A stretch of 64,000 nucleotides of DNA, taken from positions 54,407 to 118,406 of IMG/VR virus record IMGVR_UViG_3300042402_002055; one strand, given 5' to 3'. The position numbers and the translations under genes were made by a program. This DNA comes from a virus. The notes beneath the pieces were generated by a model that made no database searches, was not told the origin of the DNA, and saw only the letters and a list, made by a program, of their open reading frames with translations. This document shows positions 9,855 through 58,043 of the stretch, in pieces (the stretch's first letter is position 1; every line of letters starts with the position of its first letter).

Positions 9855-10094
9855 ATGGAACAAGGACAACAATTACCAACGAATTTTAACTTAAACGATG
9901 CAAGAGATATGGATTGTGAATGTGGTGGAAAGATATTTTTACCAGCATATAGATTTAAAAAGATATCTCGTTTATTAACAGGACAACCAAAGGATTCGGT
10001 TATGCCTATTGAATTGTATGTATGTGCAAGTTGTGGTAAAGCATTAAACGAATTATTACCACAAGAATTACAAGAAACAAAAATCACAGAATAA
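9855..10094 (+). CDS. small zinc-ribbon protein
   Basis: CECG ... CASCG. Confidence 0.65.
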   Translation: MEQGQQLPTNFNLNDARDMDCECGGKIFLPAYRFKKISRLLTGQPKDSVMPIELYVCASCGKALNELLPQELQETKITE

Positions 10095-51417: not shown

Positions 51418-52119
51418 ATGATAGATACACCCACTTTACAATTTTTTGGTTGTTCATTTACTAGTTTAGAAACTAGTGATACTGGATATGTAGTTAATAA
51501 TTTTAAAAGTATTGTTTCTGAAAAATTACAATATTCATTTATAAACCACTCTAATACTGGATATTCAAATGAAAAAATAATAGATGATGTTTATAACTTT
51601 TGTAATAACAATTTAACTCAAAATAACATATATGTAATTCAATTTAGTTTTAATGATAGATTTGGTATGTATTCCGATTTAGTAGATAAATTTATTTCAA
51701 TGTGCAAAAGAAAAAATCCGGATGATTATACCGAATCAATATTTATTAATTTTTATAACGATTGGTTAAAATATTTTTATTCAAGAAAGGGTAGAATACG
51801 AGAATTTAGAAAACAAATAGATTTTCTTTGTGCATGGTTAAGGTCAAACAATGTAAAATTTGTTTGTTTTGGGATGGATGAGGATATGGATGCAGAATAT
51901 TATACAGATGTATTTTATGAAAGAAATAATTTTATAAAATTTGAAAATACATATTCTTTATATGACCATATGTGTTTGAATAAATTAAGAATATCAGACA
52001 TTCCAGAATACCAAAAAGAAGGCCTTGTATTGGATTTTCACTTAAACAACGATGGACACATTTATATATCTAATAAAATTATAGAAAAAATAATACATTA
52101 CAATTTTTTATCTATATAG
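51418..52119 (+). CDS. SGNH-like protein (paralog 6)
   Basis: FGCSFT, GYSNEKI, DFHLNNDGH. Confidence 0.65.
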   Translation: MIDTPTLQFFGCSFTSLETSDTGYVVNNFKSIVSEKLQYSFINHSNTGYSNEKIIDDVYNFCNNNLTQNNIYVIQFSFNDRFGMYSDLVDKFISMCKRKNPDDYTESIFINFYNDWLKYFYSRKGRIREFRKQIDFLCAWLRSNNVKFVCFGMDEDMDAEYYTDVFYERNNFIKFENTYSLYDHMCLNKLRISDIPEYQKEGLVLDFHLNNDGHIYISNKIIEKIIHYNFLSI

Positions 52120-52132
52120 ATACTTATAATAC

Positions 52133-52159
52133 ATAACTCATTGATAATCAATAAGTTAT
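52133..52159. promoter_or_regulatory. 27-bp palindrome ATAACT-N2-TTGAT-A-ATCAA-N2-AGTTAT
   Basis: dyad symmetry; recurs at 63334 and 63383. Confidence 0.6.
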
Positions 52160-52177
52160 AAAATACTTTGAAAAATA

Positions 52178-52225
52178 TTTGGAAATACCAAATATTTGTC
52201 CTATCTTTAGGTCTGTTCATTGAAA
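52178..52225 (+). promoter_or_regulatory. promoter + boxA-like element before tmRNA
   Basis: TTTG-N20-TATCTTTA, then GTTCATTGAAA (52215-52225). Confidence 0.65.
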
Positions 52226-52229
52226 TATT

Positions 52230-52615
52230 GGGGATGCTTTGGAATTGATTGCAATGCAAATAGTAGTACCACACGTAGAGGTAAGTGATAGAAACTCTTT
52301 AAAACTGCACAAAACAATAACTGACGAAAAGTCAACTATGACTTACAACGACTTAATGGCGTTTGTAGGTATGGATTACGCTGTAGCAGCCTAACCAATC
52401 CCGTACACATCATGGGACTTTAAATAGAATGTGAAATACGGGCCACAGGTCGGAGCCCATTTAAAATAATTTCGAGACCAGGTTCTTTGGAAGTTTGTTT
52501 CCCACACACATCAAACTTTATATTTTGTCAATTAAGAAAAATTGAATAAACGTGTGAAATGCTGGTATTATTAGTTCTTTGTAAGACACGGGTTCGATTC
52601 CCGTCATCTCCACCA
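52230..52615 (+). ncRNA. ssrA: tmRNA
   Basis: GGGGATG/CATCTCC-ACCA acceptor with G3-U, T-arm GGGTTCGATTCCC, tag ORF 52323-52394 ending YAVAA*. Confidence 0.93.
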
Positions 52616-52625
52616 AAAAAATATA

Positions 52626-52657
52626 TTTGGTAATTTGAAAAAGTTATCGTATATTAC
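52626..52657 (+). promoter_or_regulatory. promoter for tRNA-Met
   Basis: tttggtaatttgaaaaagttatcgtatattac. Confidence 0.75.
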
Positions 52658-52666
52658 ATTTAATAT

Positions 52667-52738
52667 CGCGGGATAGAGCAGAGGTAGCTCACGTGGCTCA
52701 TAACCACAAGGTCGGAGGTTCGAATCCTTCTCCCGCAA
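52667..52738 (+). tRNA. tRNA-Met(CAT), initiator-like
   Basis: C1xA72 mismatch, CT-CAT-AA loop; only 2 of the 3 G-C anticodon-stem pairs. Confidence 0.88.
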
Positions 52739-52746
52739 CAAACTTG

Positions 52747-52827
52747 GAGCACGAGGAACTAACATAAACGGAGTGCTTAACCCATAAGTTGATTAAATTC
52801 AATTATAAGGTTTCCAGTGAGTTAGTT
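52747..52827 (+). ncRNA. candidate pseudoknotted small RNA
   Basis: GAGCAC/GTGCTT crossed by AACTAAC/GTTAGTT, with an internal hairpin. Confidence 0.4.
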
Positions 52828-52837
52828 TAAAAAAAGA

Positions 52838-52869
52838 TTTGGTAGTTTGAAAAAATTATCGTATCTTAC
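52838..52869 (+). promoter_or_regulatory. promoter for small RNA
   Basis: tttggtagtttgaaaaaattatcgtatcttac. Confidence 0.75.
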
Positions 52870-52871
52870 AT

Positions 52872-52959
52872 TTAAGATGATTGGTTGAAGCCATCAAATA
52901 ATAAAACCGATTGAGTGACCTGTCCAACAGGGAAGAAAGCCGGACACTAATTATCTTAA
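52872..52959 (+). ncRNA. candidate small RNA with its own promoter
   Basis: 14-bp closing stem TTAAGATGATTGGT/ACTAATTATCTTAA between two promoters. Confidence 0.55.
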
Positions 52960-52976
52960 AAAAAGTTTTAAATAAA

Positions 52977-53033
52977 TTTGGTAGAATAAAAAATTATTCG
53001 TATATTTATTAAAACGACAATAGTTCTTTAAAA
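52977..53033 (+). promoter_or_regulatory. promoter + boxA-like element
   Basis: TTTG-N20-TATATTTA, then GTTCTTTAAAA (53023-53033). Confidence 0.7.
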
Positions 53034-53044
53034 GATTAAAATAT

Positions 53045-53915
53045 TTTACATAGTGAGTTCGTCTCACATAGTAAACAACCGCCGCCTATGGTGGTTAAAT
53101 AAACTACGAAAGTAGGATAAAGTGGGTGTATTAAGTGATACATCTGCGGCTACTCTCCCCGTAAGGAGAGATTAGCTTGAGTAGGCAAGTGGGATATTAT
53201 TTGAGCTTTGTACGAAAGGGTAACACTATATCGGAAGAGTTTGAATAGTTGGGGTAGTATAGATACTCCGACTGAGTTGGGAACAACAATAAGAATAACC
53301 CATAGAATATCAGTAAGAAGTGTAGACTTAATCCCTCTACATCATTGCGGTATTCAGTTTCAAAGTTATCTTAACATCAAGCCATCCGAAAGGACGCAAG
53401 ATAAGATAGTGTACAAGTGGTGTTGTTACCATCCTTATATAGAGTTTACCAAAACCTATATTTGAAGATGACTTAAAAAACGGCAGTAGGGATATTGCAT
53501 CGGGTAGTTTAGTATTCTCTCGTTCAAAAGATGAGGGAGCTAGTGGTAAACCACTACCTGAATGATTCTATAAACTAAAACTCAATTTTTACTAAGGTGT
53601 AAAAACTACAATTTAAAAATTAAGCATGAGTGTTTACCAGTTGCAGATGAAAGGTGTGTACATAGTTAAGAGATGTTCTTAGCCACGATACCTCCGCAAG
53701 AGGTCTGTGATTCTATCGAAAGGTTTCTAATTCCGCAAGAACTAATCAGGCTGCGAGGCTTGAAGAAAATAATTAAGTAGAGAGTAATCGGCAACTTAAA
53801 GACTGATAGTCTTAAATCATCCACATTGAATTGGTACTACTCAAAAGGTAGTGGAAACGGAAGGAAACAAATAATCTTTCTAAAGTCGGTTCACCAAATA
53901 GAGTATTCTCATCTA
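53045..53915 (+). ncRNA. large ornate non-coding RNA (GOLLD-like)
   Basis: ~870 nt without a credible ORF, higher GC, many hairpins with GNRA loops, located among tRNAs; boundaries approximate. Confidence 0.6.
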
Positions 53916-53922
53916 TTTATAA

Positions 53923-54018
53923 GCGGAGTTGGTGTAATGGTTCCACACGGGTTTACCCGCGGGATAGCACACTTACCGATCCAGGTGAGAGGATGTAGTT
54001 CGATTCTATGGCCCCGCT
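53923..54018 (+). tRNA. aberrant tRNA-Gly-like RNA
   Basis: GCGGAGT/GCCCCGC + U73, TTCGATT T-loop, hairpin inserted in D-loop, 8-nt CGATCCAG anticodon loop. Confidence 0.6.
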
Positions 54019-54125
54019 CAAAACGAAAATATTCGTGGTCTACATTTCCGGCTGTTTCTTATTCAACAGTCAAATCGTTTAAACTTAGACCTAAAAGATA
54101 GAACGAAAAAATAAAATTGGAAGTA

Positions 54126-54228
54126 AGTGTTTTAGGGAGGATTTTGGACATTAAAAATGCAATCAGAAACGATACACGATTGCCGGTTTCGTAGTCGTAC
54201 ACTACAAGAGTTACCGCCTCCTATAAAC
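54126..54228 (+). ncRNA. candidate structured RNA
   Basis: GGAGG/CCTCC closing stem; inner GCAATC/GATTGC with GAAAC/GTTTC pseudoknot. Confidence 0.4.
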
Positions 54229-54242
54229 TCTATTCATGTGCT

Positions 54243-54311
54243 AAGTAATTTAATGAGGCTTGTATTAACCAGAGCATGACTTGGATGGCGTATTTTGAAA
54301 TTAAATTACTT
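54243..54311 (+). ncRNA. candidate small RNA
   Basis: perfect 12-bp stem AAGTAATTTAAT/ATTAAATTACTT. Confidence 0.35.
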
Positions 54312-54350
54312 TTTAAATATTAAAATAAAAGAATTAGATATATATTAACG

Positions 54351-54440
54351 ATGAGAACTCTAACACATACACTTTGTAGTCAACCGAATCAGATTTGGAT
54401 TGGCAATTTTGTGCAGTTAGAGGATACGGATGTAGGATAA
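54351..54440 (+). CDS. 29-aa putative leader peptide
   Basis: MRTLTHTLCSQPNQIWIGNFVQLEDTDVG* upstream of a terminator and the tRNA array. Confidence 0.45.
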   Translation: MRTLTHTLCSQPNQIWIGNFVQLEDTDVG

Positions 54441-54468
54441 AATGTAATAATTTTTGAATAATATTGAG

Positions 54469-54503
54469 AAACCTCTGACTGAAAAGTTAGGGGTTTTTTT
54501 GTT
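54469..54503 (+). terminator. intrinsic terminator immediately before tRNA array
   Basis: AAACCTCTGACT-GAAA-AGTTAGGGGTTT plus T-tract. Confidence 0.8.
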
Positions 54504-54509
54504 ATATAC

Positions 54510-54583
54510 TCTCACTTGGCTCAGTTGGTTAGAGCGTCGCACTGTTAATGCGAAAGTCCTAAGTTCAAGTCTTAGAGTGAGAG
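54510..54583 (+). tRNA. tRNA-Asn(GTT)
   Basis: cloverleaf; TCGCA-CTGTTAA-TGCGA. Confidence 0.88.
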
Positions 54584-54592
54584 CAAACAAAA

Positions 54593-54665
54593 GCGGGTGT
54601 AGCTCAATTGGTAGAGTGCGTTCCTTCCAAGTACGAAGTTGCTGGTTCGAACCCAGTCACCCGCT
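54593..54665 (+). tRNA. tRNA-Gly(TCC)
   Basis: GCGGGTG/CACCCGC, CTTCCAA loop. Confidence 0.9.
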
Positions 54666-54745
54666 CAAACGGTTACCAATCCGGAACACGCCTGGAAGTT
54701 TAGTGTATTAGCACACCGGGAAATGGTGATAACAAAATTGGAAAT

Positions 54746-54816
54746 TGTCGGATGGTGTAATGGTAGCACAAATGTTTTTGGTACATTTAGTTTTGGTTCG
54801 AGTCCAGGTCCGATAA
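54746..54816 (+). tRNA. tRNA-Gln(TTG)
   Basis: AATGT-TTTTGGT-ACATT. Confidence 0.85.
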
Positions 54817-54821
54817 CAAAA

Positions 54822-54895
54822 TGGGAATTAGCGTAGTCAGGTATCGCGCTAGCTTTGGGAGCTAGAGGCCGTAGGTTCGAATCCTGCATTCCCAA
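54822..54895 (+). tRNA. tRNA-Pro(TGG)
   Basis: CTAGC-TTTGGGA-GCTAG. Confidence 0.9.
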
Positions 54896-54900
54896 CACTT

Positions 54901-54974
54901 TGGAATATAGCTCAATTGGTTAGAGCATTCGCCTGATACGTGAAAGGTTGAAAGTTCGAGTCTTTCTATTCCAA
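54901..54974 (+). tRNA. tRNA-Ile(GAT)
   Basis: TTCGC-CTGATAC-GTGAA. Confidence 0.9.
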
Positions 54975-54980
54975 CACACA

Positions 54981-55051
54981 TCCGGTTTGGTGCAATGGCA
55001 GCATGTAGGTCTCCAAAACCTTTGATTACAGTTCGAGTCTGTAAACCGGTG
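54981..55051 (+). tRNA. tRNA-Trp(CCA)
   Basis: AGGT-CTCCAAA-ACCT, G73. Confidence 0.85.
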
Positions 55052-55056
55052 CAATT

Positions 55057-55129
55057 AGTTCTATGGTGTAATTGGATAGCACGAAACACTACGGATGTTT
55101 TAGTTTGGGTTCGATTCCTAATAGGACTA
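55057..55129 (+). tRNA. tRNA-Arg(ACG)
   Basis: AAACA-CTACGGA-TGTTT. Confidence 0.88.
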
Positions 55130-55135
55130 CAATAT

Positions 55136-55205
55136 GGTCAGTTTGGTCGTGGAGGCCGGTGGGACTGCAAATCTTACGGAGTTGGTTCGATTCCAACATT
55201 GACCT
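55136..55205 (+). tRNA. tRNA-Cys(GCA)
   Basis: CTGCAAA loop, U73. Confidence 0.82.
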
Positions 55206-55210
55206 CAAAT

Positions 55211-55285
55211 GGTGTTTGAAGCATTAAGGTGATGCGTCGGTTTGTGGAGCCGGATAAGACGGGTCGGTACCGTCCTTACACCCCA
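55211..55285 (+). tRNA. tRNA-His(GTG), atypical T-loop
   Basis: G-1:C73, TTGTGGA loop, encoded CCA; T-loop GTCGGTA. Confidence 0.7.
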
Positions 55286-55287
55286 AA

Positions 55288-55371
55288 GGAAAGATGGGTG
55301 AGTGGTTTAAACCAGCAGTTTACTAAACTGCCGGCTCAAAAGGTCCGTGAGTTCGAATCTCACTCTTTCCG
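55288..55371 (+). tRNA. tRNA-Ser(ACT)
   Basis: GGAAAGA/TCTTTCC, G73, long variable arm, GCAGT-TTACTAA-ACTGC. Confidence 0.85.
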
Positions 55372-55376
55372 CAAAT

Positions 55377-55451
55377 GCCCGTATGGCGGAATTGGCATAC
55401 GCAGTGGTCTTAGAAGCCATACAATTATAGGTTCGACTCCTATTACGGGTA
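55377..55451 (+). tRNA. tRNA-Leu(TAG), short variable region
   Basis: GGCGGAATTGGCATACGC D-arm, CTTAGAA loop, A73. Confidence 0.8.
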
Positions 55452-55456
55452 CATTA

Positions 55457-55488
55457 TTTGGTAAAGTAAATTATTTATCGTATATTTA
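55457..55488 (+). promoter_or_regulatory. promoter
   Basis: tttggtaaagtaaattatttatcgtatattta. Confidence 0.75.
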
Positions 55489-55493
55489 ATTTA

Positions 55494-55618
55494 TAAGGTT
55501 GATTGGGAATAAAGATAGTCCGCTAAATCGAGTTAGTGCAAATCTAATAAACTGTCATTCGGTTAGTAAAGCCAATCATAAAAGTAAATGTCCACGCACC
55601 CATCTTTTACTTTCCTTA
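55494..55618 (+). ncRNA. candidate multi-stem small RNA
   Basis: TAAGG/CCTTA, TGATTGG/CCAATCA, GATAGT/ACTGTC, AAAGTAAA/TTTACTTT stems; T-loop-like TTAG-TGCAAAT-CTAA. Confidence 0.55.
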
Positions 55619-55621
55619 AAT

Positions 55622-55693
55622 GCTCAGTTCGACTAAGGGTTAGGTCACATCCCTTTCACGGATGTAATACGGGTTCGAATCCCGTACTGAGTA
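55622..55693 (+). tRNA. tRNA-Glu(TTC)
   Basis: CATCC-CTTTCAC-GGATG. Confidence 0.9.
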
Positions 55694-55698
55694 CAATA

Positions 55699-55771
55699 GC
55701 CCGAGTAGCTCAGCTGGTAGAGCAACTGATTTGTAATCAGTAGGTCGTAAGTTCGATTCTTATCTTGGGCT
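55699..55771 (+). tRNA. tRNA-Thr(TGT)
   Basis: ACTGA-TTTGTAA-TCAGT. Confidence 0.9.
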
Positions 55772-55775
55772 CAAT

Positions 55776-55849
55776 GGATGGGTAGTTCAGTTGGTTAGAA
55801 TGTCGGCTTGTCACGCCGAAGGTCGCGGGTTCGAGTCCCGTCCCGTCCG
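55776..55849 (+). tRNA. tRNA-Asp(GTC)
   Basis: TCGGC-TTGTCAC-GCCGA. Confidence 0.92.
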
Positions 55850-55854
55850 CAACG

Positions 55855-55926
55855 GGTCTGTTAGTTAAATGGATATAACTTCTCACTTCTAATGAGATGT
55901 TCGTGGTTCGATTCCACGACGGACTA
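55855..55926 (+). tRNA. tRNA-Arg(TCT)
   Basis: TCTCA-CTTCTAA-TGAGA. Confidence 0.9.
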
Positions 55927-55932
55927 CAATAT

Positions 55933-56040
55933 GCCGGTGTGGCGGAATGATAATTGTACAGTTATTAGACGTCCCGTAATTCTAGAAAGGTGATGTATCC
56001 GAAATGGACATCGTGTGGGTAATCAGTCCCTCCACCGGCA
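55933..56040 (+). ncRNA. aberrant tRNA-Leu-like RNA
   Basis: perfect GCCGGTG/CACCGGC + A73, GGCGGAA..AGACG D-arm with hairpin insert, long variable arm, degenerate anticodon arm and T-loop. Confidence 0.55.
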
Positions 56041-56042
56041 CC

Positions 56043-56131
56043 TTATGGGCTTTGATGATACAGCCATAAAGAGAGACAGATGTTTCTCATTCATCATAAA
56101 ATAGGTAGGTGACTCCACACCTGCTTATTTT
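56043..56131 (+). ncRNA. candidate pseudoknot + hairpin
   Basis: TTATGG/CCATAA crossed by TGATGA/TCATCA; 13-bp hairpin 56098-56130 with T-tract. Confidence 0.35.
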
Positions 56132-56135
56132 TAAA

Positions 56136-56209
56136 GGGAATGTAGCTCAGTTGGTTAGAGCAAAAAACTCATAATTTTGAGGTCACAGGTTCGAGCCCTG
56201 TCTTTCCCA
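56136..56209 (+). tRNA. tRNA-Ile2/Met(CAT)
   Basis: GGG start and CTCATAAT context typical of lysidine Ile2. Confidence 0.8.
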
Positions 56210-56217
56210 CAAAAAGA

Positions 56218-56249
56218 TTTGGTAATATGAAAATATTATCGTATATTTA
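56218..56249 (+). promoter_or_regulatory. promoter
   Basis: tttggtaatatgaaaatattatcgtatattta. Confidence 0.75.
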
Positions 56250-56265
56250 TTAAAATTAGAAAATT

Positions 56266-56535
56266 ATGAATTGGTTTGTTATTTATTATGTTATCAGTAT
56301 TGTTTATTGTTTTTATCAGTTGAATGTTAAATACAAAGAAAGAGGAGTTGAATATAGTTCTCCTGAATTGGATGCAATTATGGTATTAGTTATGGCATGG
56401 GTATTAGCCCCTGTCGATGTATCTATCACTTGGATTAGAATGGTCAAAAAAGCAGAGGAAGCTAGAATAAGACAATCATCTACTACCTTTTTAGATGCAG
56501 ATACTTTCAGAAATGAAGAAACACATATCTATTAG
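56266..56535 (+). CDS. small membrane protein
   Basis: two hydrophobic segments. Confidence 0.65.
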   Translation: MNWFVIYYVISIVYCFYQLNVKYKERGVEYSSPELDAIMVLVMAWVLAPVDVSITWIRMVKKAEEARIRQSSTTFLDADTFRNEETHIY

Positions 56536-56546
56536 TAGAATATAAT

Positions 56547-56631
56547 AGAGAGTTGGCCGAGCGGTTGATGGCACCAGTCTTGAAAACTGGCAAGTGTAAA
56601 AGCTTCTGGGGTTCGAATCCCTAACTCTCTG
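56547..56631 (+). tRNA. tRNA-Ser(TGA)
   Basis: CCAGT-CTTGAAA-ACTGG, long variable arm. Confidence 0.92.
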
Positions 56632-56645
56632 CAAAAACAAAAGTT

Positions 56646-57164
56646 ATGACACTAAAAGAAGCAACTGCCGAATTACATAGTAAGGCAGAAAAGATGGATT
56701 TTAATCAAAGAATGTTTGCGGGTAAATTGAGTAATGATGAATACTTAAATTATCTAATTCAACAATCTTACATTTTCCAAGAAATAGAAAATAGAAATTT
56801 ACCGCATCCAAATTTACAAAGATTAAGTTCAATCAATGAAGATATAAATGAATTGGGTGGATATAAATTTAAGATAAGCAAACCAACAACCGATTATGTT
56901 GTTTATTTGGGTGACTTAAATCAGTCAAACTTAAATGCACACATCTATCTTAATTACTTAGCTATTATGTTTGGTGGACAAATGATGAAATCAAAAGTTC
57001 CAGGTAGTGGTAAGATGTATGACTTTGAAGGTGACATGAGAGAATTGATTGGTAGTGTTAGAGCAATTCAAAATGATGGAATGGCCGACGAAGTAAATAA
57101 AGGTTTTATATTTATCATAAACATATTAGATGAATTACAAAGAAACTCTGGACAAACTATCTAA
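56646..57164 (+). CDS. heme oxygenase
   Basis: LKEAT..LH..AE, AHIYLNYL..MFGGQM, PGSG.MY. Confidence 0.88.
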   Translation: MTLKEATAELHSKAEKMDFNQRMFAGKLSNDEYLNYLIQQSYIFQEIENRNLPHPNLQRLSSINEDINELGGYKFKISKPTTDYVVYLGDLNQSNLNAHIYLNYLAIMFGGQMMKSKVPGSGKMYDFEGDMRELIGSVRAIQNDGMADEVNKGFIFIINILDELQRNSGQTI

Positions 57165-57762
57165 TGATATCCAATGGTTGATTTATCAGTTAGCAGATGG
57201 TGTTAAAATCGAAACGGAAGATTTTGGTTGGGACAATCGTAGATACGCATCAAATCGATTTAGAATGGCACACATTGAAAGATATTCCGATTCAAATTTA
57301 GAAGTATTACACTTTACTTGTTTTCCTACAAAATACTCACAATTGCCAATATTTGGATGTGATATAATTACAACCGATAAAAAACCATTGGCAGCATTTA
57401 TGGATTGGTCACCTGTTGATTCTGCATTAGAAATGACTATGACACATCAATTTGAAAAACCATATCCATTACCTGATTGGGCTAAGATTATATTTTCACC
57501 AACAGCATTGGCAATTGTCCCATCGGATAATGAAATGGAAAAATTAACGGAAGTAATATTACAAAGTTTTAAAACATATATTTCTTTATTGGGTAGTAGT
57601 AAAGATAAAAGTGAAAGAGTTGATTATATAATAGCAGCACAAAATCGATATTGTGAAAATCAACAAAAGAACGAAAGAACTTATAATGTATTGAAAGCAA
57701 AATTAGGAAAAGAAAGAGCTAAATACTTTATGGAAACAATCCTATTCCCGAAGATAGATTAA
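57130..57762 (+). CDS. ferredoxin-dependent bilin reductase (PcyA/PcyX-like)
   Basis: FRMAHIE, VLHF.CFP, PIFGCDI, DWSP, LPDWA.IIFS, QNRYC.NQQKN; adjacent to heme oxygenase. Confidence 0.85.
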   Translation: MNYKETLDKLSNDIQWLIYQLADGVKIETEDFGWDNRRYASNRFRMAHIERYSDSNLEVLHFTCFPTKYSQLPIFGCDIITTDKKPLAAFMDWSPVDSALEMTMTHQFEKPYPLPDWAKIIFSPTALAIVPSDNEMEKLTEVILQSFKTYISLLGSSKDKSERVDYIIAAQNRYCENQQKNERTYNVLKAKLGKERAKYFMETILFPKID

Positions 57763-57818
57763 CATATATAAAAAAATAATATATATAACACATTGACCCC
57801 AATGTTACTAAAAATAGT

Positions 57819-57850
57819 TTTGGTAATTTGGGGTTTTTTTCGTATCTTAC
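57819..57850 (+). promoter_or_regulatory. promoter
   Basis: tttggtaatttggggtttttttcgtatcttac. Confidence 0.7.
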
Positions 57851-57872
57851 ATATCTAATAGAAAACAACTAT

Positions 57873-58043
57873 ATGGGTAAGTTCTACGAAGATTTAGATA
57901 CTCTTAATGAGTTAATTAAAAAATTGGATAAGAAAAATCAATTGGGTGAGTTTATTATAAAAGCACTTAGATTGATGAAAGAAAATCCAAACAAATCAAT
58001 ATCAGATGTCATCAAAGAAACAAAAAAAGAACATTATAAATAA
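57873..58043 (+). CDS. hypothetical protein
   Basis: start moved to ATG after the promoter. Confidence 0.55.
   Translation: MGKFYEDLDTLNELIKKLDKKNQLGEFIIKALRLMKENPNKSISDVIKETKKEHYK

Follow-up and report, generated by a model that had tools for sequence, protein, structure and literature searches.

The window, i.e. the whole stretch of 64,000 nucleotides (nt) analysed here, is the 3' part of the virus record IMGVR_UViG_3300042402_002055 (IMG/VR; 118,406 nt, estimated to be 63% complete, from lake water). It possesses an island of RNA genes on the + strand (52230-56632), in which, according to ARAGORN and Rfam, transfer-messenger RNA (tmRNA), tRNA-Met, GOLLD RNA, a tRNA-like element, ~480 nt of conserved sequence and the tRNA genes follow each other in this order. 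Directly before the first block of these tRNA genes lie a short open reading frame (ORF), designated here as the leader, and an intrinsic terminator. The initial annotation had proposed that the two act together as a tRNA-sensing attenuator, and the element that they form (the module) is the subject of this work. Its parts in the window, taken from the ORF list and a duplex search, and the block behind it are:

54351..54440, + strand: leader ORF, 29 codons plus TAA, MRTLTHTLCSQPNQIWIGNFVQLEDTDVG; ATG at 54351, TAA at 54438-54440
54358..54364, + strand: segment 1, CTCTAAC, codons 3-5; pairs with segment 2 (anti-antiterminator)
54372..54407, + strand: sensor codons 8-19, LCSQPNQIWIGN
54415..54423, + strand: segment 2, AGTTAGAGG, codons 22-24; pairs with segment 1 or segment 3
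54466..54500, + strand: intrinsic terminator, with segment 3 core CCTCTGACT (54472-54480), segment 4 core AGTTAGGGG (54485-54493) and T-run (54494-54500)
54510..55452, + strand: first tRNA block (ARAGORN, Rfam), Asn, Gly, Gln, Pro, Ile, Trp, Arg, Cys, a weak tRNA, Ser, Leu

The 29-codon ORF was found where it had been annotated (54351-54440), and its peptide matches no Pfam or PHROG family. The hairpin behind it is real as well: its stem (54466-54499) has 15 pairs and a loop of 4 nt, and it is the strongest of the terminator-like sites in 52000-58000 (6 sites versus 3.3 +/- 1.7 in shuffles). The distances had to be corrected, from 28 to 25 nt between stop codon and stem, and from ~6 to 9 nt between the T-run and tRNA-Asn (at 54510), which indeed adjoins the terminator. 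The absence of a promoter between these two was borne out: a sigma-70-like or Bacteroidota-type promoter was rejected for this place because the gap of 9 nt leaves no room for it, and the phage's own promoter motif (see below) has no copy there. The count of 11 tRNAs agrees with our data if 10 genes found by ARAGORN within 54510-55452 are taken together with one weak Rfam tRNA (55212-55282, 29.2 bits) that ARAGORN missed. Relatives have tRNA-His(GTG) at the position of this weak tRNA, and GTG can be recognized by eye in its anticodon loop; ARAGORN finds no tRNA-His in the window, and the weak gene is a candidate for the tRNA corresponding to the conserved His of the leader. No tRNA was called by ARAGORN or Rfam in the array gaps 54667-54745 and 55928-56135. 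The G/C-ending codons of the leader, which had been described as uncommon here, are uncommon in this phage (CCG represents 7% of Pro, CAG 9% of Gln, GGC 3% of Gly, GTG 9% of Val, GAG 15% of Glu and ACG 8% of Thr codons; 51 long ORFs, 15,837 codons), but they are not kept in the relatives L046 and L020, which have CCT and CAA at these positions (L046 also GGT).

Conservation of the module and its place before tRNA genes

Pattern scans of viral contigs gave the close relatives of the module (L002, L005/L010, L003, L012); an invariant 23-mer of the neighbouring GOLLD RNA led to 55 contigs, and a degenerate pattern of the peptide tail to 34 contigs with 24 new loci. A covariance model (R1) was built from 19 distinct sequences, and its search resulted in 55 matches (29 + 26) on 51 loci. 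All but one of them are modules; the 55th match (E=0.064) was rejected, being only a terminator behind a protein gene. In cultured phage records, near and distant DNA searches returned only two tRNA-Thr matches of 54-60 nt, the upstream protein of 233 amino acids (aa) revealed no relatives when used as a query for the locus, and a scan of metagenome contigs with the ORF-core pattern gave 0 matches.

Conservation of ORF and terminator in relatives had been put forward as a check of the attenuator, and both are kept in 54 of 54 modules with variation of the coding type. The ORF starts with ATG and has 22-53 codons in every module, all gaps inside the frame are multiples of three (3, 6 or 24 nt), and synonymous changes are found among the leaders (CCG>CCT, CAG>CAA, GGC>GGT, ACG>ACT, GTA>GTT/GTC). 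The C-terminal tail L[ED]DTDVG (54423-54437 in the window) is common to otherwise dissimilar leader types and varies synonymously, the sequence Asp-Thr-Asp-Val-Gly-stop being kept through ACG/ACT, GTA/GTT/GTC and GGA/GGT. Leaders of 22 codons end with Met-stop and have no DTDVG tail.

One may ask whether the ORF is open by chance, within a structured non-coding RNA located behind GOLLD, with the hairpin as the 3' end of this RNA. Among the five closest relatives, the nucleotide sequence of the ORF core does not vary, the fold of the leader region beats all 200 shuffles (z -4.1), and no Shine-Dalgarno sequence was found before the ATG, all of which would suit such an RNA. However, L046 and L020 differ from the window in CCG>CCT, CAG>CAA, GGC>GGT, AAT>AAC and AGT>AGC, and these changes break the internal hairpin CCGAAT/ATTTGG and keep the amino acids (CCT AAT CAA AAT TGG). 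Furthermore, the frame is open in all 54 modules through indels of 3-24 nt, conservation begins at the leader ATG, with variable sequence upstream of it, and the distant modules are not located beside GOLLD. We dropped the idea of a chance frame, which appears highly improbable, because the tail and Pro-Asn-Gln are kept through synonymous changes and the hairpin is broken.

The module is linked to tRNA genes. In 51 of the 54 modules a tRNA gene starts 1-173 nt after the end of the model, and the other three have no more than 45 nt of downstream DNA. Downstream of GOLLD, 28 stretches of 500 nt or more gave no module with blastn; 26 of them lack a tRNA within 1.5 kb, and the remaining two (L030 and L033) contain a divergent module and an array. 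Eight of the 26 were inspected, and each has a hairpin with a T-run within ~150 nt of GOLLD, followed by a long ATG-started stretch. Several of the same phages carry a distant module elsewhere in the genome, apart from GOLLD and directly before an array. Moreover, L036 and L086 possess two modules each, one per array, and L083 possesses two as well, with the DNA after the second one missing. Judged from this distribution, the module belongs to the tRNA arrays and not to GOLLD.

Alternative pairings of four RNA segments

The initial annotation had recognized no convincing antiterminator helix, and in this point it has to be revised: segment 2 (AGTTAGAGG) pairs with the 5' arm of the terminator (CCTCTGACT), and this antiterminator covaries with the terminator. 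The sequence of segment 2 (54415-54423) is almost that of the terminator 3' arm AGTTAGGGG (54485-54493), and segment 2 is the best upstream complement of the 5' arm (duplex energy E23 -13.3 kcal/mol, shuffle p 0.003), and the best complement of segment 2 is in turn segment 1 (E12 -10.0 kcal/mol, shuffle p 0.013). An unbiased duplex search placed segments 2 and 1 at homologous positions in 19 of 19 distinct close relatives, with segment 1 at codons 2-5. Segment 2 starts ~22-24 nt before the stop codon in the long forms of the leader (27-30 nt in L030 and L033); in leaders of 22 codons, it overlaps this codon. The distance from the stop codon to the start of the terminator arm is 26-35 nt. The segments of five types are (a dash stands for no entry):

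Window: segment 1 CTCTAAC; segment 2 GTTAGAG(G); segment 3 CCTCTGAC; segment 4 GTTAGGGG
L032: segment 1 CTTTAAC; segment 2 GTTAAGG; segment 3 CCCTTAACT; segment 4 AGTTAAGGG
L039: segment 1 CTTGAAT; segment 2 ATTCAGG; segment 3 CCCTGA..; segment 4 -
L016: segment 1 TGAGAC; segment 2 GTCTCGA; segment 3 TCGGGAC; segment 4 TCTCGAGG
L036_4747: segment 1 -; segment 2 TGTTCGG; segment 3 CCGAACA; segment 4 TGTTCGGG

The letters of the segments are wholly different between types and the logic of their pairing is kept, as can be seen from GTTAGAGG/CCTCTGAC, GTCTCGA/TCGGGAC and TGTTCGG/CCGAACA for segments 2 and 3. The 2:3 helix was evaluated with a swap test because the short and the long classes differ in its register by one column. 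Among 15 segment types, cognate segments 2 and 3 bind with a mean of -11.74 kcal/mol versus -8.56 +/- 0.55 kcal/mol for swapped ones; none of 20,000 permutations was as low (p<=5e-5), and the cognate arm ranked first in 7 and among the top three in 13 of the 15 types.

For helices 1:2 and 3:4, a covariance-model alignment (A6) was used because a plain MAFFT alignment (A5) failed to keep the helices in register. On A6, 88.1% of the cells are paired (shuffles 76.4%), both sides are changed in 13 pairs (shuffles 7.6), and the covariation score is 0.43 (shuffles 0.22, slid controls <=0.17); none of 500 shuffles reaches the observed value in any of the three measures, although A6 was fitted to the very structure that was counted, and this fit favours it. 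In helix 1 (1:2), changes on both sides are present in 6 of 7 pairs, and in helix 2 (3:4), with 93.8% of its cells paired, in 7 of 15 pairs. The fold of a 4-sequence alignment contained no pair with changes on both sides, the divergence of these sequences being too small.

The terminator conformation is the minimum-energy fold in all 15 representatives if no ribosome is present. The antiterminator lies 1.0-13.2 kcal/mol above this minimum, and in the window it lies 2.1 kcal/mol above. When a ribosome was mimicked by masking 30 nt, the predicted fold of the window's leader became 2:3 for masks at codons 9 and 13, stayed at 1:2 plus 3:4 for a mask at the stop codon, and was the terminator fold if the start codon or codon 17 was masked.

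Leader codons and the downstream tRNAs

The sensor codons 8-19 of the window's leader all specify amino acids of the first tRNA block (12 of 12; P=0.0012 for a matching run of 12 residues in random peptides of proteome composition, 0.0024 in leader shuffles), and codons 9-17 (TGT AGT CAA CCG AAT CAG ATT TGG ATT) are all readable by this block under strict wobble rules. Similar correspondence can be found in other leaders, listed here with the first tRNAs downstream:

MRQLTNITSTSNQLNWNEQP...: Pro-Asn-Trp-Leu-Gln
MRQQKHTMSFIICSKWADER...: Ile-Phe-Lys-Trp-Arg-Cys-His (both ends of the leader as in MRQLTNITSTSNQLNWNEQP, the middle differs)
MNTMNLNTNTLPTTPNGDGG...: Pro-Asn-Asp-Gly-Thr
MKNINNISTSTRPLNNGNGYGVQP...: Leu-Arg-Pro-Asn-Leu-Tyr
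...CLTIRIWGG: Ile-Trp-Arg-Cys-His
...CSTPNQIWGG (sister of ...CLTIRIWGG): Tyr, then Asn-Gly-Gln-Pro-Ile-Trp

The match was evaluated over all modules by swapping arrays among them, and as the sequences are related, the p-values of these permutations overstate their independence. Whole peptides match their own array with p 5e-5 to 4e-4 (four array definitions, three redundancy levels, n=10-42). If the peptide is divided into a sensor part (codon 2 to 13 nt before segment 2, a boundary set after the peptides had been seen) and a tail, the sensor codons match their own array at 0.556 versus 0.466 in the null (p=5e-5, n=36; p=0.0012, n=15; p=0.00035 for the 10 representatives that are <60% alike), and the tail codons give p=0.12, 0.09 and 0.59 at the amino-acid level. 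At the codon level with strict wobble, the match is 0.449 versus 0.361 (p=5e-5). Mean counts of single amino acids in the sensor part of leaders whose array has or lacks the respective tRNA (15 representatives) are:

Asn: with tRNA 3.0, without 0
Trp: with tRNA 0.92, without 0
Cys: with tRNA 1.14, without 0.38
Tyr: with tRNA 0.78, without 0.17
Val: with tRNA 1.2, without 0.2
Phe: with tRNA 1.4, without 0.3
Lys: with tRNA 1.8, without 0.4
Ile: with tRNA 1.86, without 0.88

Leaders can also be compared in pairs, each with its own array and with that of its partner. The two leaders of phage L036 match their own arrays in 21 of 43 cases and the other array in 7 of 43 (p=0.0024), and L086, a related phage, gives this result again. 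For the sister types L016 and L036_7508, the values are 26/39 and 9/39 (p=0.0002), and for L083_650 and L016, they are 32/38 and 22/38 (p=0.02).

These data bear on the possibility that the module is a translation-coupled attenuator of another kind, which reports general translation capacity or ribosome stress through a nascent-peptide arrest motif rather than the supply of particular tRNAs. TnaC, SecM and the Erm leaders are examples of nascent-peptide arrest. The conserved H-T, P, W-G and DTDVG positions before the stop codon, with their synonymous variation, would fit such a motif, as would the phage's own tmRNA 2 kb upstream. An arrest motif, however, does not predict that the central residues change with the array between sister types sharing the ends of the peptide, e.g. 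MRQ...SNQLNWNEQP... with Pro-Asn-Trp-Leu-Gln versus MRQ...FIICSKWADER... with Ile-Phe-Lys-Trp-Arg-Cys-His. We therefore consider this explanation unlikely. As the central codons name the amino acids of the downstream tRNAs, the sensed signal is probably slow decoding of those codons. The DTDVG tail itself possibly serves as a programmed pause at termination.

Transcription of the island, proposed mechanism and known systems

The features upstream of the module and the promoter-like motifs are:

52230-52615: phage-encoded tmRNA (ARAGORN), tag DEKSTMTYNDLMAFVGMDYAVAA
52977..53006, + strand: nearest recognisable upstream promoter motif, heading the GOLLD RNA unit; another copy at 52838-52867
53500-53915, probably ~53097-53915: GOLLD RNA (RF02032; 283.7 bits versus the Rfam gathering threshold of 150)
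54243..54319, + strand: conserved upstream hairpin with closing stem AAGTAATTTAAT / ATTAAATTACTT, followed by a T-run (13 distinct sequences)
29339, 32974, 52626, 52838, 52977, 55457, 56218, 57819 and 63428, + strand: copies of TTTGGTA-N15-CGTATMTT (motif search)
L036 4747-4927(-), L018 939-1101, L086 7181-7312: modules with a promoter-like consensus after the terminator

The window contains TTTGGTA-N15-CGTATMTT at nine sites of the + strand and at none of the other strand, the expectation being 0; this motif probably represents a promoter class of the phage of Bacteroidota type (TTTG ... TAnnTTT). Its form TTTG...TAnnTTT(A/G) resembles the Bacteroidota promoter consensus. No copy is present between 53006 and 55457. 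The upstream hairpin has a closing stem of 12 bp that is kept in each of the 13 distinct sequences; in L039, L012, L057 and L032, both sides of this stem are changed. The T-run follows it in 12 of 13. This hairpin is either the terminator of the GOLLD unit or an element bearing the promoter of the leader. Its invariant interior contains a candidate -7 box for the leader (TGGCGTATTTTGAA, 54286-54299); compared with TAnnTTTG this box lacks one base, no TTTG precedes it at a distance of ~20 nt, and L032 carries an altered version. In the distant modules, a promoter-like TAnnTTTG box of their own precedes the ATG by 18-29 nt.

Assembled RNA contigs of four metatranscriptome runs (four studies) were searched as well; depth, ends and strand of transcripts cannot be read from such contigs. 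Their word depth is ~400-25,000 over the GOLLD region (700-25,000 over 53011-53832) and 1-140 just downstream, and they begin at 53097. In the bin 54381-54517, which comprises the 3' part of the leader and the terminator, the depth is 1-14, and low cover with holes is no evidence here. One contig (depth 2.9) spans from 54332 across the terminator and 205 nt beyond it, for which carry-over of DNA is an equally possible source.

The fall of contig depth after GOLLD by ~100-1000-fold could suggest that the ORF encodes a small protein of independent function, that the hairpin ends the transcript of this ORF or of GOLLD, and that the tRNAs are made through constitutive leakage or from unrecognised promoters. 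Conservation at the amino-acid level of the tail L[ED]DTDVG and of the H-T, P and W-G positions would be in line with this, and so would the promoter-like consensus after the terminator in one type. Yet such a protein would leave unexplained why the terminator arm covaries with codons in the 3' part of the ORF and the start of the ORF with segment 2, why the central residues track the downstream tRNA set, and why a tRNA gene follows all 51 modules with readable downstream DNA. We regard it as improbable.

We prefer to interpret the module as a translation-coupled attenuator that gauges the decoding of the codons served by its array, and would give this reading a probability of roughly two in three. 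The attenuator interpretation of the initial annotation is supported by comparative rather than experimental evidence, and the element has the leader ORF, the terminator, the exclusive pairings and the cognate codons of a trp-type leader-peptide attenuator, placed before tRNA genes. According to the proposed mechanism, the four RNA segments would adopt one of two exclusive states, 1:2 plus 3:4 (terminator) or 2:3 (antiterminator). If no ribosome is present, segment 1 would hold segment 2, 3:4 would form, and the polymerase would stop 9 nt before tRNA-Asn. A ribosome that reads through the leader would sit near the stop codon, on or beside segment 2, and again 3:4 would form and transcription terminate. 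A ribosome stalled at about codons 8-19, in contrast, would keep segment 1 off segment 2 and leave the latter free; segment 2 could then capture the emerging segment 3, no terminator would form, and transcription would enter the tRNA array. The signal would be slow decoding of the sensor codons and the response more of the respective tRNAs; the phage would thus probably produce additional tRNAs only at times when they become scarce for the ribosomes. That the ORF is translated, in which direction the switch works and which physiological signal it obeys are what we infer here; the direction is suggested by the geometry and by analogy, and it is the only one that would make functional sense of the match between leader and array.

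A number of observations weigh against this reading. Regarding the pairings, helix 1:2 is weak in the L012 type (-4.3 kcal/mol, shuffle p 0.28-0.51), the L036_4747 type (p 0.92-0.95) and L083 (p 0.38-0.75), and single-sequence tests of 2:3 are not significant in the L016 type (p 0.15-0.37) and the L012 type (p 0.09-0.21). Regarding the codons, the window's leader as a whole matches its array in 17 of 28 residues (binomial p=0.12), a chance-level value because the 10 amino acids of the block make up 48% of the proteome. The tail codons also carry a codon-level signal (p=0.004), Arg changes in the opposite direction, no clear difference is seen for Leu, Thr and Met, and the increase for Ser, Gly and Gln is only slight. 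Four comparisons of leaders in pairs gave p-values of 0.24 to 1: L003 and L015 (own array 14/36, other 10/36, p=0.45), the window and L054 (28/42, 23/42, p=0.37), the window and L036_7508 (22/36, 16/36, p=0.24) and the window and L036_4747 (23/39, 23/39, p=1). Conservation of the tail at the amino-acid level suggests a role at the peptide level beyond simple codon sensing. Regarding transcription, there is no recognisable promoter directly upstream of the window's leader (none in 53006-54351), and the terminator-like hairpin at 54243-54319 precedes it. In the L036_4747/L018/L086 type, the terminator is separated from the first tRNA (Leu-TAA, at +56) by a full promoter-like consensus, TTTG-N19-TATATTTG, with the T-run of the terminator itself supplying TTTG, and the array there may not need readthrough. 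Finally, translation of the ORF, termination and readthrough are predictions from the comparison of sequences.

If the attenuator reading is correct, phage tRNA arrays would not simply be expressed but made on demand, the ribosome itself serving as the measuring device and each array having its own gauge. The sequence of each leader would predict which shortages should switch its array on, so that the reasons for which phages carry tRNAs and the occasions on which they use them would become testable, and a modular, programmable sensor of decoding speed could be reused as a tool. A more specific proposal, possible but doubtful in our opinion, is that the leader is a phage-built decoding gauge for many amino acids, which detects the loss of particular host tRNAs during infection (e.g., through host anticodon nucleases or phage-driven shut-off of the host) and has exactly the replacement tRNAs transcribed. 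Phages with several arrays would then have several independent gauges, one per array, and the DTDVG tail would programme a termination pause that holds the ribosome between segments 2 and 3.

Several further features of the island may be mentioned. The tmRNA, a ribosome-rescue RNA, adjoins the putative stalling sensor, and the relatives L002, L003 and L005 have a tmRNA too. L002 (~9930-10010) has a gene similar to tRNA-Asn(GTT) whose T-arm is aberrant (ATATCGTAATTCT replacing GGTTCGAATCC), and L012, L020 and L046 have the same gene directly 3' of the terminator; ARAGORN misses the copies of L002 and L020. The block 54020-54240 is ~80-92% conserved in L002, L003, L005, L046 and L054 and absent from L012-type relatives. 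It contains no conserved ORF and has no Rfam match, and the region 54085-54314 is covered by RNA contigs of three runs (depth 34-87). Directly after the last tRNA, two overlapping ORFs of 172 and 210 aa are located (56646-57762), and the longer one has relatives in 7 viral contigs (57-69% identity).

Leader-peptide attenuators are well known from enterobacteria (trpL, hisL, leuL, pheL and the multivalent leaders of thrL and ilvGMEDA). The phage module shares with them the short leader ORF, the exclusive 1:2/2:3/3:4 pairings, the terminator just before the regulated genes, the location of the regulatory codons between segments 1 and 2, and termination as the default. It differs from them in that tRNA genes and not enzymes would be regulated, and in that the sensor is a mixed string of up to ~12 different amino acids rather than a run of one or two. 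Furthermore, segment 1 is located at codons 3-5 or on the start codon, the 2:3 loop has ~50 nt, and the module is phage-borne (apparently in phages of Bacteroidota) and has no sequence homology to the enterobacterial elements. The pheST attenuator with its leader pheM is an example of a translation-apparatus gene under leader-peptide attenuation. As in pheST, the module would control decoding supply, not amino-acid synthesis, via stalling at cognate codons; pheST, however, encodes the synthetase for one amino acid, whereas the module precedes the tRNAs themselves, for many amino acids. With T-box riboswitches, the module has in common that the tRNA pool would be sensed and that a terminator/antiterminator switch is used, but T-boxes bind uncharged tRNA directly and need no ORF, which the module has. 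Rfam searches (cmscan, E<=1) revealed no T-box over 51500-58000 and no known family over 54020-54510 (one chance match, E=0.65).

Full-text literature searches, with supplementary files excluded, returned no account of leader-peptide control of tRNA genes. The nearest published case found, as far as the available text of the two reports goes, is the long tRNA operon of Anabaena PCC 7120, which is induced under translational stress (PMC8421152) and repressed by TrcR (PMC10272220). In the same available text, 'attenuat' does not occur in either report, 'leader' not in the first and 'leader peptide' not in the second. As far as can be seen from these sources, the Anabaena operon resembles the phage module in being an accessory tRNA array that is silent until translation is impaired, and differs from it in being under a DNA-binding repressor. 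Leader-peptide attenuation is a classic mechanism; in the phage module, tRNA genes would be its new target.

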